From NCBI GenBank assembly GCA_016208745.1, contig JACQXN010000005.1, forward strand, positions 1 through 46,624: a stretch of 46,624 nucleotides of DNA. Reading direction: 5' to 3'. The number at the start of each line of letters is the position of its first letter. Position 1 is the first letter of the stretch. Position numbers and translations under genes: made by a program. The notes under the pieces are model-generated. The model searched no databases. It was not told the origin of the DNA and was given only the letters and a program-made list of their open reading frames with translations. This document shows, one piece after another, positions 6,854-42,620 of the stretch. The DNA comes from Candidatus Portnoybacteria bacterium. GTDB taxonomy: Bacteria > Patescibacteriota > Minisyncoccia > Portnoybacterales > GWB1-42-6.

Positions 6854-7031
6854 GTTCACTATCGCTCAAGTTAAAAGTTAAAAATGAAAAGTTCAAATTT
6901 TTCTTTTTTAATTTTAAGATGTCGTTTTTATATTTTTTTGCTAAAGGCGAATCAGCCTCGGGCTGAAATTTTTACTTTTTAATTCCTCTTGAGCCGTTGG
7001 TCCCGCATCTTGCGGGACGACCCGTCTCTTG

Positions 7032-7301
7032 AGCCGTTGTCCGGAATCGAACCGGAGACCTACTCCTTCATTTTGTACCTCTTTTTATATAATACTTATA
7101 AGAGGATTAGACTGTATATTTGGCGTGTCTCAAATGAGATTTAGCCACCCTTGTCAGTCGTTCGTCCGCCTAAGGCGGAACGGTCTTAACCTAGTATAGG
7201 CCTTTAACCGTTATTCGGGATTCGCAATTAAATTTCTCTAATTGTGGGCATAGCCTCTGCGGCTTACCATGGAGTTGCTCTACCGACTGAGCTACAACGG
7301 C
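7032..7301 (-). tRNA. tRNA-Thr(GGU), split by an intron; exons 7266-7301 and 7032-7068
   Basis: Joined exons give GCCGUUGUAGCUCAGUCGGUAGAGCA-ACUCC-AUGGU|AA-GGAGU-AGGUCUCCGGUUCGAUUCCGGACAACGGCU, a complete cloverleaf. Confidence 0.92.
7069..7265 (-). ncRNA. Group I self-splicing intron (197 nt, no ORF)
   Basis: 5' exon ends in U and intron ends in G. P1 CAUGGU/GCUAUG with U.G; P2 AAUUAGA-GAAA-UUUAAUU; P4 AACGGU/ACCGUU; P7 GACUG/CAGUC; P9 CCUCUU/AAGAGG. Confidence 0.9.
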
Positions 7302-37294: not shown

Positions 37295-37307
37295 CAAATT
37301 TTAATTG

Positions 37308-40300
37308 ATGAAATTTACCCACCTCCACGTCCATAGTCACTACAGCTTATTAGACGGTCTCGGAAAAATCGATGGATTGATTGATTTGACGTTGGCACAA
37401 AATATGGACTCGCTAGCCATAACCGACCATGGCGCCTTATACGGCGCTATTGAATTTTATAAAAAAGCTAAAGCCAAAAAACTGAAACCGATTATTGGCT
37501 GCGAAATGTATGTGGCGCCAGGAGGCATGTTAAATAAACGGCCAAAAATTGATGACAAAAGGCATCACTTAGTTGTTTTGGCAAAAGACAAAACTGGCTA
37601 TGAAAATCTGGTTGAAATGACAACTAAGGCATGGTTGGAAGGATTTTATTATAAACCAAGAATTGACAGAGATTTATTAAGAGAAAAAAGCCAAGGTCTA
37701 GTTGGCCTCTCGGCTTGTTTGGCCGGCGAAATTCCAACTGCTATTTATAACGGCGACCTTAAAAAAGCCGAGGCCTTGGCTCTTGAATATCAAGAGATTT
37801 TTGGCAAAGATAATTTTTTTCTTGAGATTGAACACCATCCCGGCATAAAAGAACAGGAACCGACCAATCAAGAAATAATTAAAATCGGCCGCAAATTAAA
37901 AATTCCGATTGTGGCTACCAACGATGTCCACTATTTAAGGCCCGAGGACTCTGAAGCCCAAGATGTCCTGATGGCCGTAAATACCGGGGTGCAGCTTGAT
38001 CAGAAAGAACGCCTTTCAATGCGGTCGGATGATTTTTCCCTAAAATCTCCGGAACAAATGGCTGAATGGTTTAAGAAAATTCCCGAAGCGATTGAAAACA
38101 CTCAACAAGTCGCAAGCCTCTGCAACCTTGAATTTAAATTAGGGAATATTCAGTTGCCACACTTTAAGGTTCCAAGCGGCAAATCGCCAAACGAATTTTT
38201 AAAAGAGTTGGCTTATCGAGGCTTGAGCCGCCGCTATAAATCAACTAGTCCGGATATTTTAAAGCGGCTGGAATATGAATTAGATGTTATCTCCCAGACT
38301 GGCTTTGCTTCTTATTTTTTAATTGTGCAGGATTTTGTTAACTGGTCTAAAGAAAATGGCATTGCGGTTGGCCCAGGACGCGGCTCAGCTGCCGGCTCTA
38401 TAATTGCTTACCTCTTAAATATTACTGACATTGATCCTTTAAAATACGATCTTCTTTTTGAGCGCTTTTTAAATCCTGAAAGAATTTCTATGCCAGACAT
38501 TGACTTGGATTTTGCTGATGCCAGACGCGAAGAAGTCATTGAATACGTCAGGCAAAAATATGGAAACGACCATGTTGCCCAAATCATCACTTTTGGGACA
38601 ATGGCTGCTCGCGCCGCCATTCGAGATTCTGGCCGCGCTATGGGTTATTCTTATAATCTTTGCGACCAAGTGGCTAAAATGATTCCCTTTGTGCCTGGCC
38701 AGACCTTGGAACGCGCGCTTCACGAAACCATTGAACTGCATCAGCTTTACGATTCTGACGAACAGGTTAAAAAACTTATTGATACCGCTATGAAGCTTGA
38801 AGGCGTGGCGCGCCACGCCTCAACTCACGCAGCCGGCGTGCTTATCTCAAAAGATTCGCTGACACGAAGCGTTCCTCTCCAACACCCAACGCAAGATGAT
38901 AATATTATTGTTACACAATACGAAATGCATGCCATTGAAGATTTGGGGCTTTTGAAAATGGACTTTCTGGGCCTAAAAACCCTAACCCAGATAGAAAACA
39001 CTCTTGAAATTGTCAAAAAAACAAAGCAAAAAAATATTGATATAACTTCCCTGCCGCTTGACGATAAAGATGTTTTTAAATTATTGCAAGAAGGCAGAAC
39101 AACTGGCGTTTTCCAGCTTGAGTCTGGCGGCATGAAAAGGACGCTTCGTGACCTTGGGCCAACAGAGCTTGAAGATATTATCGCTATTGTCGCTTTATAT
39201 CGGCCCGGCCCAATGGATTTTATTCCTGAATTTATCGCCAGAAAACATGGCCTTAAAAAAATAGAGTATCTTCACCCAAAGCTTGAAACAATTCTTAAAA
39301 AAACATACGGCGTCTGCGTTTATCAGGAACAATTAATGCAGATTGCCAGAGAATTGGCTGGCTTTTCTCTGGCTGAAGCTGACACCTTAAGAAAAGCGGT
39401 TGGTAAAAAAATTAAAAAACTTTTAGACGAACAACGAGGAAAAATGATTCAAGGCATGGAAAGAAACGGCATTGAGACAAAAACTGCCGAAGAAATCTGG
39501 CAATGGGCTGAGCCATTTGCCCGTTATGGGTTCAATAAATCTCATGCCGCCTGCTACGCCACGCTTGGCTATCAAACCGCTTATTTAAAAACTCATTTTC
39601 CGACAGAATTTATGGTAGCGATTATGAATTCTGAACAAAACGATATTGAAAGAATCGCCTTTTTGGTTAATGAATGCTCGCAAATGAAAATCGATGTTTT
39701 GCCGCCTGATATTAATGAAAGCTTAGAAAATTTTACGGTTGTTAAAGATGGCGTTATTCGTTTTGGTTTGGCAGCCGTTAAAAATGTCGGCCGCAATGTA
39801 GTTGAGGCGATTGTCAAAGAACGTAAAGCCAGCGGACATTATAAATCAATCTCTGATTTTGTTGAAAGAGTGCGCGATAAAGATTTAAATAAAAAATCTC
39901 TGGAAAGCTTAACCAAATGCGGAGCAATGGATAAATTAGGAGAGCGCGGCCAATTGCTTTTTAATATGGAGTATATTTTGGGATTCTCCCGCGAAATCCA
40001 AAAATCAAAAAACAATGGCCAAGTCGGGCTTTTTGACGTTTTAAAAACAAACGGCGATCTCCAAAGCAGCGGCTTACCGCAATTAAAACTTCAGGATACA
40101 CCGCCCGCCATAAAAAGAGAACGGCTAACTTGGGAAAAAGAATTGCTCGGACTTTATATTTCCGACCATCCGGTTAAAGAATATGAATCTTACATTGAAA
40201 AAAATGCTCTGCTTTGTTCAAAAATTTCGCCCCAAATGCTCGGCAAAAATGTGAAAGTTGGCGGAGTAATTAGCAAAATCCATAAGATTATTACCAAAAC

Positions 40301-40523
40301 CGGCCGGCCAATGCTTTTTGTGACTATTGAAGACACAAAAGCAAAAATTGAAGTTTTGGTGTTTCCAAAAACCCTTGAGCAAACTGCCACTCTCTGGCAG
40401 GAAGATAAACCAATTATTGTTTCTGGCCGGCTAGACGACAAAGACGGAAATTTAAAAATTCTCTGCGAGGAGGTTCGAGAATTAAATGGAAATCATCTAA
40501 ACCATTTAAATAATTTTCGATAA
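37308..40523 (+). CDS. dnaE: DNA polymerase III alpha subunit
   Basis: PHP domain HLHVHSHYSLLDG, GPGRGSAAGS, MPDIDLDF, LLKMDFLGL, YGFNKSHA, OB fold; no intein. Confidence 0.98.
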   Translation: MKFTHLHVHSHYSLLDGLGKIDGLIDLTLAQNMDSLAITDHGALYGAIEFYKKAKAKKLKPIIGCEMYVAPGGMLNKRPKIDDKRHHLVVLAKDKTGYENLVEMTTKAWLEGFYYKPRIDRDLLREKSQGLVGLSACLAGEIPTAIYNGDLKKAEALALEYQEIFGKDNFFLEIEHHPGIKEQEPTNQEIIKIGRKLKIPIVATNDVHYLRPEDSEAQDVLMAVNTGVQLDQKERLSMRSDDFSLKSPEQMAEWFKKIPEAIENTQQVASLCNLEFKLGNIQLPHFKVPSGKSPNEFLKELAYRGLSRRYKSTSPDILKRLEYELDVISQTGFASYFLIVQDFVNWSKENGIAVGPGRGSAAGSIIAYLLNITDIDPLKYDLLFERFLNPERISMPDIDLDFADARREEVIEYVRQKYGNDHVAQIITFGTMAARAAIRDSGRAMGYSYNLCDQVAKMIPFVPGQTLERALHETIELHQLYDSDEQVKKLIDTAMKLEGVARHASTHAAGVLISKDSLTRSVPLQHPTQDDNIIVTQYEMHAIEDLGLLKMDFLGLKTLTQIENTLEIVKKTKQKNIDITSLPLDDKDVFKLLQEGRTTGVFQLESGGMKRTLRDLGPTELEDIIAIVALYRPGPMDFIPEFIARKHGLKKIEYLHPKLETILKKTYGVCVYQEQLMQIARELAGFSLAEADTLRKAVGKKIKKLLDEQRGKMIQGMERNGIETKTAEEIWQWAEPFARYGFNKSHAACYATLGYQTAYLKTHFPTEFMVAIMNSEQNDIERIAFLVNECSQMKIDVLPPDINESLENFTVVKDGVIRFGLAAVKNVGRNVVEAIVKERKASGHYKSISDFVERVRDKDLNKKSLESLTKCGAMDKLGERGQLLFNMEYILGFSREIQKSKNNGQVGLFDVLKTNGDLQSSGLPQLKLQDTPPAIKRERLTWEKELLGLYISDHPVKEYESYIEKNALLCSKISPQMLGKNVKVGGVISKIHKIITKTGRPMLFVTIEDTKAKIEVLVFPKTLEQTATLWQEDKPIIVSGRLDDKDGNLKILCEEVRELNGNHLNHLNNFR

Positions 40524-40543: not shown

Positions 40544-40572
40544 TTGACAGATGCTGCAAGCGGTCTTAAAAT
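40544..40572 (+). promoter_or_regulatory. Sigma70 promoter of thrS leader
   Basis: TTGACA-17 bp-TAAAAT. Confidence 0.8.
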
Positions 40573-40578
40573 AAACCT

Positions 40579-40699
40579 AGAGCGACGAAGCAGACTCACC
40601 ACCTGTTGAGCTCTCGTTAGTTGCCAACGAAATTGGCGCAAAGAGTGCCCAGAAATCATGGGAAGCCAAGTGGAACCCCCCGTAGTTGCGGGGCTTGGC
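40579..40699 (+). promoter_or_regulatory. T-box riboswitch (ultrashort stem I, Thr specifier ACC)
   Basis: Stem I AGAGCGA..GCAG-ACUCACCAC-CUGU-UGAGCUCU; stem III CCCA/UGGG; antiterminator GCCAAG-UGGAACC-CCCCGU/GCGGGG-CUUGGC. Confidence 0.82.
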
Positions 40700-40814
40700 A
40701 TCAAATGATTTTTGGGTATTTTTATTTAATTTTTAATTTTGTAATTTTTAAAAATATCCTGCAGAGCAGGATTGGATTAAAAATTAGAAATTAGACATTA
40801 GAAATTACGCTGCG

Positions 40815-42620
40815 ATGAAGAATCAAAATTCCAATAGAGAAAACCAGCTAGAAATACTCCGTCACTCCACGGCACACATACTCGCGGCCGCAGTGTTTAA
40901 TATGTTCCCCGAAGCCAAATTTGGCATTGGCCCAACAATTGAAGATGGCTTTTATTATGACTTTGATTTGCCGCGAACTTTGATTCCCGAAGATTTGCCG
41001 ATTTTGGAAGAAAAAATGCGCGCCATTATCAAGCAAAATCTGGCATTTGAAAAAGAAAAAATAGATGTAAAAAAAGCACAGACTCTTTTTAAAAAAGCCA
41101 AACAGTTATATAAAGTTGAATTAATTAAAGAGATTAGCGAACAAGGGATAAGTGAACAAGTAGATAAGGACAAGAGACCCAAAAAACTTGCGACTAGTTC
41201 ACTTGTCACCATCTATAAAACCGGCAATTTTGTTGACCTTTGCCGCGGCCCGCATATTGATTCAACCGGCGAGATAAAACCGGATGCTTTTAAGCTCTTG
41301 AAGATCGCCGGCGCTTATTGGCGCGGCGATGAAAAAAATAAAATGCTCCAGCGAATTTATGGAACTGCCTTTGAAAGCAAAAAAGATTTAGGCGAATATC
41401 TGAAAAAGTTGGAAGAAGCCGAGAAACGAGACCACAGAAAACTTGGCGAATATTTAGACCTTTATAGTTTTCCCGAATTAACCGGCGGCGGCCTACCTGT
41501 CTGGCATCCAAAAGGCGCGCAAATTCGCAAACAAATTGAAGATTTTTGGAAGACAGAGCATGAAAAGCGCGGCTACAGCCTCGTCTATTCTCCGCACATC
41601 GCCAATTTAGAGATCTGGAAAAAATCTGGCCATTGGGATTTTTATCGCGAAAATTTATATTCCCCTATTAAGATTGACAACGAGGAATATATGCTCAAAC
41701 CCATGAACTGCCCTTTTCATATTTTTATTTATCAGCATCAAATCAGAAGCTACAATGATTTGCCCATAAGATACGCCGAGCTTGGAACGGTTTATCGCTA
41801 TGAACGATCGGGCGCGCTTCATGGTTTAACCCGCGTTCGCGGCTTTACTCAAGACGATGCCCATATTTTTTGCCGGCCTGATCAGATAAAAGAGGAAGTG
41901 GTCAATGTTTTAAAACTAGCTGGCCTTATGATGGAAACGTTTGGCTTTGAAAAATATAATGCTTATCTTTCAACGCGGCCGGAAAAAGCTATCGGCTCTG
42001 ATGAAAACTGGAAAAAAGCAACTTCTGCTTTGGAAGCGGCGCTTGGAGAAGCAAATATCAAATATGAAATTGATCCGGGCGAAGGAGTTTTTTATGGTCC
42101 GAAAATTGATATAAAAATAGAAGATGCGCTTGGCCGGCAATGGCAGGGGCCGACCATTCAAGTTGATTTCAATTTCCCGGAAAGATTTGAACTCTATTAT
42201 ATTGACGACAAAGGCAAAAAACAACAACCGGTTATGATCCATCGCACAGTCCTTGGTTCAATGGAGCGCTTTGTGGGCGTTTTAGTGGAAAATTTTGCTG
42301 GCGCCTTTCCTTTGTGGCTTGCGCCAGAACAGGTTTGGGTTTTGCCGATTGGCTCGCGGCATGAAGAATATGCGTTGAAAGTAGCTGAAAAAATAAAAGC
42401 GGAAAATATCCGCGTTATTGTTAAAAGCGAAAACGAAACCATCGGCAAGAAAATCCGCGAAGGCGAAATGCAAAAAATTCCATACTTATTAATCGTTGGC
42501 GATAAAGAAATAGAATCTGGTTCTGTCGCGGTGCGCGAAAGAAATAAAGGAGATTTGGGACCGATGAAAATGGAAGAGTTTTTGGAGAAAATCAAAACAG
42601 GGATAAAAAACAAAAAATAG
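40815..42620 (+). CDS. thrS: Threonine--tRNA ligase
   Basis: LRHSTAH, DLCRGPH, GAYWRG, RDHRKLG, KPMNCPFH, RVRGFTQDDAH, FYGPKID, IHRTVLGSMERF. Confidence 0.98.
   Translation: MKNQNSNRENQLEILRHSTAHILAAAVFNMFPEAKFGIGPTIEDGFYYDFDLPRTLIPEDLPILEEKMRAIIKQNLAFEKEKIDVKKAQTLFKKAKQLYKVELIKEISEQGISEQVDKDKRPKKLATSSLVTIYKTGNFVDLCRGPHIDSTGEIKPDAFKLLKIAGAYWRGDEKNKMLQRIYGTAFESKKDLGEYLKKLEEAEKRDHRKLGEYLDLYSFPELTGGGLPVWHPKGAQIRKQIEDFWKTEHEKRGYSLVYSPHIANLEIWKKSGHWDFYRENLYSPIKIDNEEYMLKPMNCPFHIFIYQHQIRSYNDLPIRYAELGTVYRYERSGALHGLTRVRGFTQDDAHIFCRPDQIKEEVVNVLKLAGLMMETFGFEKYNAYLSTRPEKAIGSDENWKKATSALEAALGEANIKYEIDPGEGVFYGPKIDIKIEDALGRQWQGPTIQVDFNFPERFELYYIDDKGKKQQPVMIHRTVLGSMERFVGVLVENFAGAFPLWLAPEQVWVLPIGSRHEEYALKVAEKIKAENIRVIVKSENETIGKKIREGEMQKIPYLLIVGDKEIESGSVAVRERNKGDLGPMKMEEFLEKIKTGIKNKK

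Follow-up and report, generated by a model that had tools for sequence, protein, structure and literature searches.

The thrS leader in the window (the whole 46,624-nt stretch of DNA that was analysed) is a real, conserved T-box of reduced and re-wired type. The complete model, in which the leader RNA (approximately positions 40579 to 40727) would sense uncharged tRNA-Thr, is considered likely. The evidence shows the structure, its conservation, the match of codon and discriminator to the tRNA, and two mutually exclusive pairings which are both conserved. Binding of the tRNA, sensing of its aminoacylation, and termination as the output are inferred without RNA data. The initial annotation had proposed that thrS is controlled by a T-box whose stem I is ultrashort and carries the specifier at its apex. 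This proposal was supported by the comparative data, and all of the elements it had listed were present at the positions assigned to them.

The leader lies in a 291-nt spacer between dnaE (37305-40523) and thrS, in a genome of 859 kb (0.86 Mb) that is 97.8% complete. Relatives of ThrS labelled 'Patescibacteria group' and 'Candidatus Saccharibacteria' are 61-62% identical to it and those from other phyla 50-59%, a weak hint of affiliation. Its elements span 40544-40727, from promoter to U-run, and are as follows, together with the regulated gene and the predicted ligand.

40544..40572, + strand: sigma-70-type promoter, with -35 element TTGACA (40544-49), 17-nt spacer, and -10 element TAAAAT (40567-72).
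40579..40614, + strand: ultrashort stem I, 36 nt, with lower helix 40579-83/40610-14 and upper helix 40590-93/40603-06.
Within stem I: K-turn GAGC-GAC-GAA/UGA-GCUC, with bulge GAC at 40584-86 and G.A and A.G pairs of 40587-88 with 40608-09.
40594-40602, + strand: apical loop of stem I, 9 nt, ACUCACCAC.
40598..40600, + strand: specifier codon ACC (Thr), complementary to anticodon GGU and followed by conserved A40601.
40615..40638, + strand: F-box-like CGUUA and hairpin 2, a 5-bp hairpin (40622-26/40634-38), with GCCAA/UUGGC at 40623-40637.
40615-17 (CGU) with 40627-29 (ACG), + strand: proposed IIA/B-type pseudoknot, pairing inferred.
40640-40647, + strand: purine string, AAAGAGUG, with RRRxG represented by GAGUG (40643-47).
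40648-51/40659-62, + strand: stem III, 4 bp, CCCA-GAAAUCA-UGGG.
40663-64, + strand: linker AA, closing the 5' part of the discriminator (40640..40664).
40665-70/40694-99, + strand: helix A1, GCCAAG/CUUGGC, of the T-box 'antiterminator' element (40665..40699).
40671-40677, + strand: 7-nt bulge UGGAACC between helices A1 and A2.
40678-82/40689-93, + strand: helix A2, CCCCG/CGGGG, with loop UAGUUG.
40646..40727, + strand: putative intrinsic terminator, a 14-bp long-range helix (40646-59/40705-18) enclosing A1 and A2, followed by a U-run.
40815..42620, + strand: thrS, the regulated gene, encoding threonyl-tRNA synthetase (601 aa; domains tRNA_SAD, tRNA-synt_2b, and HGTP_anticodon).
7031..7301, - strand: tRNA-Thr(GGU) gene, interrupted by an intron of 197 nt and bearing U73; once spliced, its product is the predicted ligand.

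A K-turn, a specifier followed by a purine, the RRRxG-stem III-AA signature, and a UGGNACC bulge are among the features by which the T-box family is described (PMC7583486), and all four were found in the thrS leader. The K-turn of stem I is textbook-like, with the C-stem GAGC/GCUC, the bulge GAC, and then the pairs G.A, A.G, and A-U. The discriminator signature 5'-RRRxG-stem III-AA-3' is present as GAGUG-CCCA...UGGG-AA (40643-40664). Stem I and stem III are separated by only 30 nt with a single 5-bp hairpin; stem II, which is optional in the T-box family, and its S-turn are absent from the leader. Neither an S-turn internal specifier loop nor a distal double T-loop platform for the tRNA elbow is present in the leader, since a stem I of 36 nt with an apical codon leaves no room for a distal domain. 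The terminal pair of A2 is C40678-G40693 and not the G.U wobble.

The promoter matches the consensus at 11 of 12 positions and ranks among the three best within 20 kb. The same TTGACA...TAAAAT arrangement recurs at equal distance in orthologous leaders. The inferred transcript start is at approximately 40579-81, the foot of stem I. Folding of the 245-nt leader gave a z score of -7.95 relative to shuffled sequences. This value, together with helices that covary across genera, places the structure of the leader far beyond chance. Of the listed sequencing runs, four contained the segment 40300-42300; all were DNA runs from a single groundwater study, and none was an RNA run.

To obtain homologous leaders, the spacer was compared by BLAST with 60 relatives. 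The core was recovered in same-family genomes, and compensatory changes were evident once the leaders had been oriented. Nine leaders were aligned with MAFFT (alignment A1). RNAalifold predicted 39 pairs in this alignment, 21 of them with compensatory changes. Pairs were also counted against a hand-written structure comprising stem I, hairpin 2, the 3-bp pseudoknot, helices A1 and A2, and the long-range helix. By this count, 96.5% of cells were paired and 22 of the 41 pairs showed compensatory changes, a result equalled by none of 500 shuffles, and controls in which the structure was slid along the alignment reached only 35 to 45% pairing. A second alignment (A4) included 20 leaders from many families and was cut at the end of helix A1, so that it is free of the terminator. 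Here, 90.7% of cells were paired and compensatory changes were found in 23/25 pairs, which again no shuffle equalled (0/500).

The individual elements were evaluated in the same way. All 9 to 10 pairs of stem I covary. In the GA/GA dinucleotides of the K-turn, three bases never vary among the 20 leaders and the fourth is retained in 90% or more. Hairpin 2 covaries among the nine leaders. Each of the three CGU/ACG pairs is 100% paired in these nine; two are invariant, and one covaries (U-A to C-G in 2/9). Distant relatives have counterparts in the form of CACC/GGUG or CGG/CCGUUA, and we read this pairing as a probable pseudoknot of the IIA/B type, by inference. Stem III could not be distinguished from shuffles among the nine closest leaders, and across 20 leaders all four of its pairs show compensatory changes. 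Helices A1 and A2 are 100% paired in the 20 leaders, with compensatory changes in 5/6 and 4/5 pairs, respectively.

The specifier was a threonine codon in every one of the 20 leaders (ACC in 16, ACU in three, and ACA in one). It varies only at the third base, and the A that follows is invariant; ACC was also read by eye in ten further leaders. The bulge is UGGAACC in 19 leaders and UGGGACC in the remaining one, and GUGG.ACC is invariant throughout. Lack of conservation of ACC or UGGAACC in orthologous leaders had been named beforehand as an outcome that would refute the reading; a threonine codon and UGGNACC were kept in all 20. The genome contains 46 tRNA genes, three of which are for threonine (GGU, UGU, and CGU). 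U73, the partner of A in UGGA, was found in all 15 tRNA-Thr genes examined from six genomes; both tRNA-Thr genes located within the window have it. The match of UGGA to U73, which had been pointed out previously, held for 15/15 discriminator bases, and the comparative data likewise support the match of ACC to tRNA-Thr(GGU). We also considered covariation of UGGN with N73 within the threonine leaders and rejected it: the genome with the UGGG leader (G005) still has U73 in its tRNA-Thr, and the substitution is tolerated through a possible G.U pair and is not a compensatory change.

The initial annotation had further predicted that the ligand is an intron-containing tRNA. The match to tRNA-Thr(GGU) held, whereas its intron is only incidental. 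This gene is the sole intron-bearing one among the 46 tRNA genes. The intron follows position 36/37 of the anticodon loop, is visible only to aragorn -i, and matched no Rfam family, group I introns included, at E <= 1. Two relatives (G004 and G005) carry intron-less tRNA-Thr(GGU) orthologues yet have the same leader.

Similar leaders were also observed in front of genes for other synthetases. The same ultrashort stem I precedes a class I synthetase gene in G329 (L141), with AUC in the loop and UGGU as the bulge, and in a congeneric genome the discriminator base of tRNA-Ile is A73. Three leaders (L204, L206, and L211, from G265, G254, and G283) combine a GGC apical loop with a UGGA bulge and precede class II synthetase genes of approximately 465 aa. 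Since these GGC and AUC leaders precede other synthetase genes, the class with an ultrashort stem I seems likely to serve glycine and isoleucine too. A further T-box-like locus (L143, G308:C7:25830-25976) has an AUC-like loop with a UGGA bulge, in a genome whose tRNA-Ile has A73; it precedes a 70-aa ORF without a Pfam family.

In the search with the Rfam T-box model RF00230, no match was obtained in the window at the gathering score. The 401-nt segment 40450-40850, searched against Rfam at E <= 10, returned no T-box and only snoRNA-like families at chance level, and RF00230 did not match anywhere in the whole 859-kb genome up to E <= 10. Homologous leaders, in contrast, were matched weakly, with 33 to 40 bits (E of 1e-3 to 5e-8) against a cut-off of 93. 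Three of 18 loci (L045, L050, and L046) scored 33 to 38 bits, the window's own locus not being among them, and the loci detected with our model R1 (described below) in G242 and G302 scored 40 and 38 bits. When relatives are aligned to RF00230, hairpin 2 falls on the IIA/B-F-box region (CG...CGUUA) and AAAGUG on the purine string. These sub-threshold matches tie the leader to the classical T-box family. Some thrS leaders of the phylum (L160 and others) combine a classical terminator with a long stem I of the classical kind, and the element of the window appears to stand at the reduced end of a T-box continuum.

It should be noted that T-boxes as such are common in the phylum, because RF00230 at E <= 0.01 matched 53 of the 151 genomes sampled. 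Full-length classical T-boxes above the Rfam cut-off were seen in five of the 151 (L152-L156). No paper on T-boxes in Patescibacteria or candidate phyla was found in the open-access literature searched (PubMed Central and bioRxiv), only general T-box papers, and TBDB applied its translational model in Actinobacteria only. The earlier comment on the scant documentation of patescibacterial T-boxes thus held for the literature searched, yet not for want of matches in the genomes.

The distribution of the reduced type was evaluated with two models of our own. Model R1 was built from orthologous leaders with the terminator helix included. It found one true copy in its own genome and matched 15/59 genomes of the order (13/15 in family f1, 1/1 in f7, and 0/36 in f6), 5/151 genomes of the class sample, and 22/151 of the phylum sample. 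The models thus recover the leader in many relatives with small genomes, and in 34 of the 38 matches examined thrS lies downstream; of the other four, one is followed by a class I synthetase gene, another by a 70-aa ORF, and two run into a contig edge. Model R2, built from alignment A4, matched 34/151 genomes of the phylum sample, and in its own genome at E <= 1 it detected the thrS leader alone. A script searching for TGGNACC flanked by helices of the A1 and A2 type returned seven places in the genome, only the thrS leader being both compact and perfect. As R2 and this script single out the same leader, the genome seems likely to carry a single T-box, located before thrS. A reading of the element on the reverse strand was rejected, with the minus strand scoring 26 bits or nothing with R1 and R2.

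Some leaders accept large insertions, of approximately 130 nt in the A2 loop (L043, G006) or approximately 25 nt in A2 (L038, G008). Extra hairpins occur within the specifier loop region in G011, G007, and G013 (L041, L042, and L045). In L045 and L046, from same-family genomes (G013 and G010), 413 and 486 nt separate a leader of classical type from thrS.

Downstream of the antiterminator, the initial annotation had seen only a weak G.U-rich hairpin and had left the output unclear. This description did not hold. Helix A1 is followed by AUCAA and then by AUGAUUUUUGGGUA (40705-40718), which is the 3' strand of the 14-bp long-range helix and is directly abutted by the U-run UUUUUAUUU (40719-27). 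The 5' strand of the helix (40646-59) starts with the final two purine-string bases, runs through the 5' strand and the loop of stem III, and ends at the first base of that stem's 3' strand. Within the window, no downstream complement to 40689-99, the 3' strands of A1 and A2, was found; therefore, the terminator is built differently, on 40646-59. Stem III and the long-range helix share CCCA, so that they are mutually exclusive, and both are conserved. Across the nine leaders, pairing in the helix reaches 98.4% and three of its pairs show compensatory changes; a U-run directly follows it in every close relative. In G161, G133, G302, and G242, as well as in the AUC leader, the helix is formed again by quite different sequences. 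The output is most likely transcription termination through the long-range helix and U-run, an inference made without an experiment.

Computed energies were -35.7 kcal/mol for the terminated fold and -21.9 kcal/mol for the fold with stem III. Based on this difference, the model predicts that termination is probably the default state, as in other T-boxes. Terminator types were assigned by script in 38 leaders, resulting in 22 of the long-range type, nine classical, six with a separate hairpin after A1, and one unresolved. The share of the long-range type (22/38) is biased, as R1 contained the terminator helix, and the calls for L136 and L138 are doubtful. G013 and G010, of the same family, combine the same stem I with a classical terminator. 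The window as a whole is enriched in terminator-like sites (42, versus 24.9 +/- 5.6 in shuffles).

An AT-rich palindrome was observed between the terminator and the thrS AUG (40728-40807), with the tip CCUGCAGAGCAGG and arms built of TAGAAAT-like heptads. Similar arms occur at approximately ten places in the same genome and at many places in relatives, and G004 has the palindrome at the identical spot with a covarying tip.

In the proposed mechanism, anticodon GGU would pair with ACC in the apical loop of the K-turn-bearing ultrashort stem I, and the tRNA 3' end, U73-C-C-A, would pair with UGGA of the bulge between A1 and A2. Uncharged tRNA is predicted to hold the discriminator together, comprising GAGUG, stem III, AA, A1, and A2. 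With the purine string and stem III locked onto A1/A2, CCCA would be withheld from the downstream strand; the base of the terminator would then be unable to close, and RNA polymerase would read into thrS. Without uncharged tRNA, 40646-59 would pair with 40705-18, leaving A1 and A2 at the tip, and transcription would stop near 40720-27. Because A1 and A2 can form in both states, the switch would rest on the 4-bp stem III.

Several observations speak against the model. RF00230 is silent on the window and the genome, and a terminal G.U pair of A2, described as a steric sensor of aminoacylation, occurs in only 5 of the 20 leaders (the others being AU in five, CG in four, GC in four, and UA in two). 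The S-turn of stem II is lacking, as is the distal T-loop platform, which is described as needed by transcriptional T-boxes for fast tRNA capture (PMC7583486). The 4-bp stem III, on which the switch would rest, lacks statistical support among the nine closest leaders, and one relative (L201) has a similar long-range helix without stem III. The bias in the share of the long-range terminator type also counts against the model.

Among the alternatives is a T-box acting on translation, in the manner of the ultrashort ileS T-boxes of Actinobacteria, or on mRNA stability, with the long-range helix serving as a sequestrator or in RNA processing or stability; we consider it unlikely. In its favor, an ultrashort stem I has so far been known solely from translational T-boxes (bioRxiv 10.1101/2023.02.28.530422; PMC7583486), and in one relative, L145 (G214), GAGGUGA stands in the 3' strand of the equivalent helix, 9 nt upstream of the thrS AUG, where pairing could additionally mask the ribosome-binding site. 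However, the helix of the window ends 97 nt short of the AUG and contains no Shine-Dalgarno-like sequence. Furthermore, the U-run directly follows the helix in close relatives and also in more distant leaders of the same type, and relatives with the same stem I carry classical terminator hairpins and U-runs.

Another reading takes the leader as a T-box-derived relic that does not sense tRNA and acts as a constitutive or protein-controlled attenuator, bound, for example, by ThrRS. The E. coli thrS operator is bound by ThrRS itself. The silence of RF00230 would fit a relic, as would the lack of a platform, of stem II, and of the G.U wobble. Against this, the threonine codon is kept in 20/20 leaders with changes at the third base only, and UGGNACC is invariant across many families, which leaves the relic very unlikely. 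Mimicry of a ThrRS operator was rejected, as the apical loop shows the codon ACC and not an anticodon mimic. Equally improbable is a T-box of classical logic in which stem III is idle and the bound tRNA keeps the long-range helix from forming, either by steric hindrance or because the purine string alone is docked. Such a reading is favored by L201, which has a similar long-range helix and lacks stem III, by the involvement of U and G of GAGUG (40646-47) in the long-range helix, and by the length of stem III, which is merely 4 bp. It is contradicted by CCCA, which is common to both pairings, each of them being kept by compensatory changes in the distant G161, G302, and G242. Leader-peptide attenuation was set aside without a peptide search, given that it fails to explain the conserved loop codon and UGGNACC; the ORF list contains only a 57-aa TTG frame (40621-40794) in the leader. 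The preferred reading remains a tRNA-sensing T-box with termination as its inferred output.

Compared to classical transcriptional T-boxes (RF00230; Bacillus tyrS, thrS, and glyQS), the leader shares its position before an aminoacyl-tRNA synthetase gene, the K-turn at the foot of stem I, the specifier with its purine, an F-box-like region with a proposed pseudoknot, RRRxG-stem III-AA, UGGNACC between A1 and A2, and a putative terminator with a U-run, with read-through expected on uncharged tRNA. It differs in that stem I is only 36 nt long with an apical codon, in that the S-turn loop, platform, and stem II are lacking, in the C-G instead of G.U pair at the end of A2, and in not being scored by RF00230. 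Moreover, the terminator draws its 5' strand from the 5' half of stem III, where a classical one uses the 3' strands of A1/A2, and A1 and A2 would persist in the terminated state.

The ultrashort (US) ileS T-boxes of Actinobacteria (Sherwood, Grundy and Henkin 2015, as cited in PMC7583486 and bioRxiv 10.1101/2023.02.28.530422) similarly have a short stem I, a specifier in the terminal loop, no elbow platform, and the same discriminator. The US class controls only ileS, translationally via a Shine-Dalgarno sequestrator, and the S-turn of its stem II supports the codon-anticodon helix (bioRxiv 10.1101/2023.02.28.530422). In contrast, the element of the window precedes thrS in a different phylum, displays ACC, has no stem II, and ends in a putative terminator with a U-run. 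Minimal T-boxes of the glyQS type resemble it in being compact and without stem II. However, glyQS has a long stem I with a platform and no IIA/B pseudoknot, whereas the thrS leader, with its inferred pseudoknot, would show the opposite combination. What is new here is the combination of an ultrashort stem I, the absence of stem II, and a differently wired terminator, the mechanism of which is inferred.

A bolder reading would be that these leaders represent a distinct co-transcriptional T-box architecture with only two tRNA contacts, the apical codon and the UGGA bulge, and without platform or stem II. A stem III stabilized by tRNA would compete, together with the purine string, with the terminator, A1 and A2 being folded in both states. 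Along with the GGC and AUC sister leaders, such elements would form a minimal class typical of small Patescibacteria-like genomes. At present, we see as much reason to doubt this reading as to accept it.

T-boxes are a model system for one RNA reading another. In current accounts, transcriptional control goes with a long stem I holding the tRNA elbow, and the ultrashort form with a translational control of ileS in Actinobacteria that is slow and reversible. If true, a thrS T-box of approximately 150 nt that combines an ultrashort stem I and no stem II with an intrinsic terminator would call this separation into question, and structural work and engineering would gain a very small natural tRNA sensor. 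The class of thrS leaders with an ultrashort stem I is entirely missed by standard Rfam annotation, and the 0.86-Mb genome retains exactly one detectable T-box, on thrS. For the T-box family, basing the terminator on the 5' strand of stem III would, if confirmed as real, represent a second route by which the discriminator is coupled to RNA polymerase.
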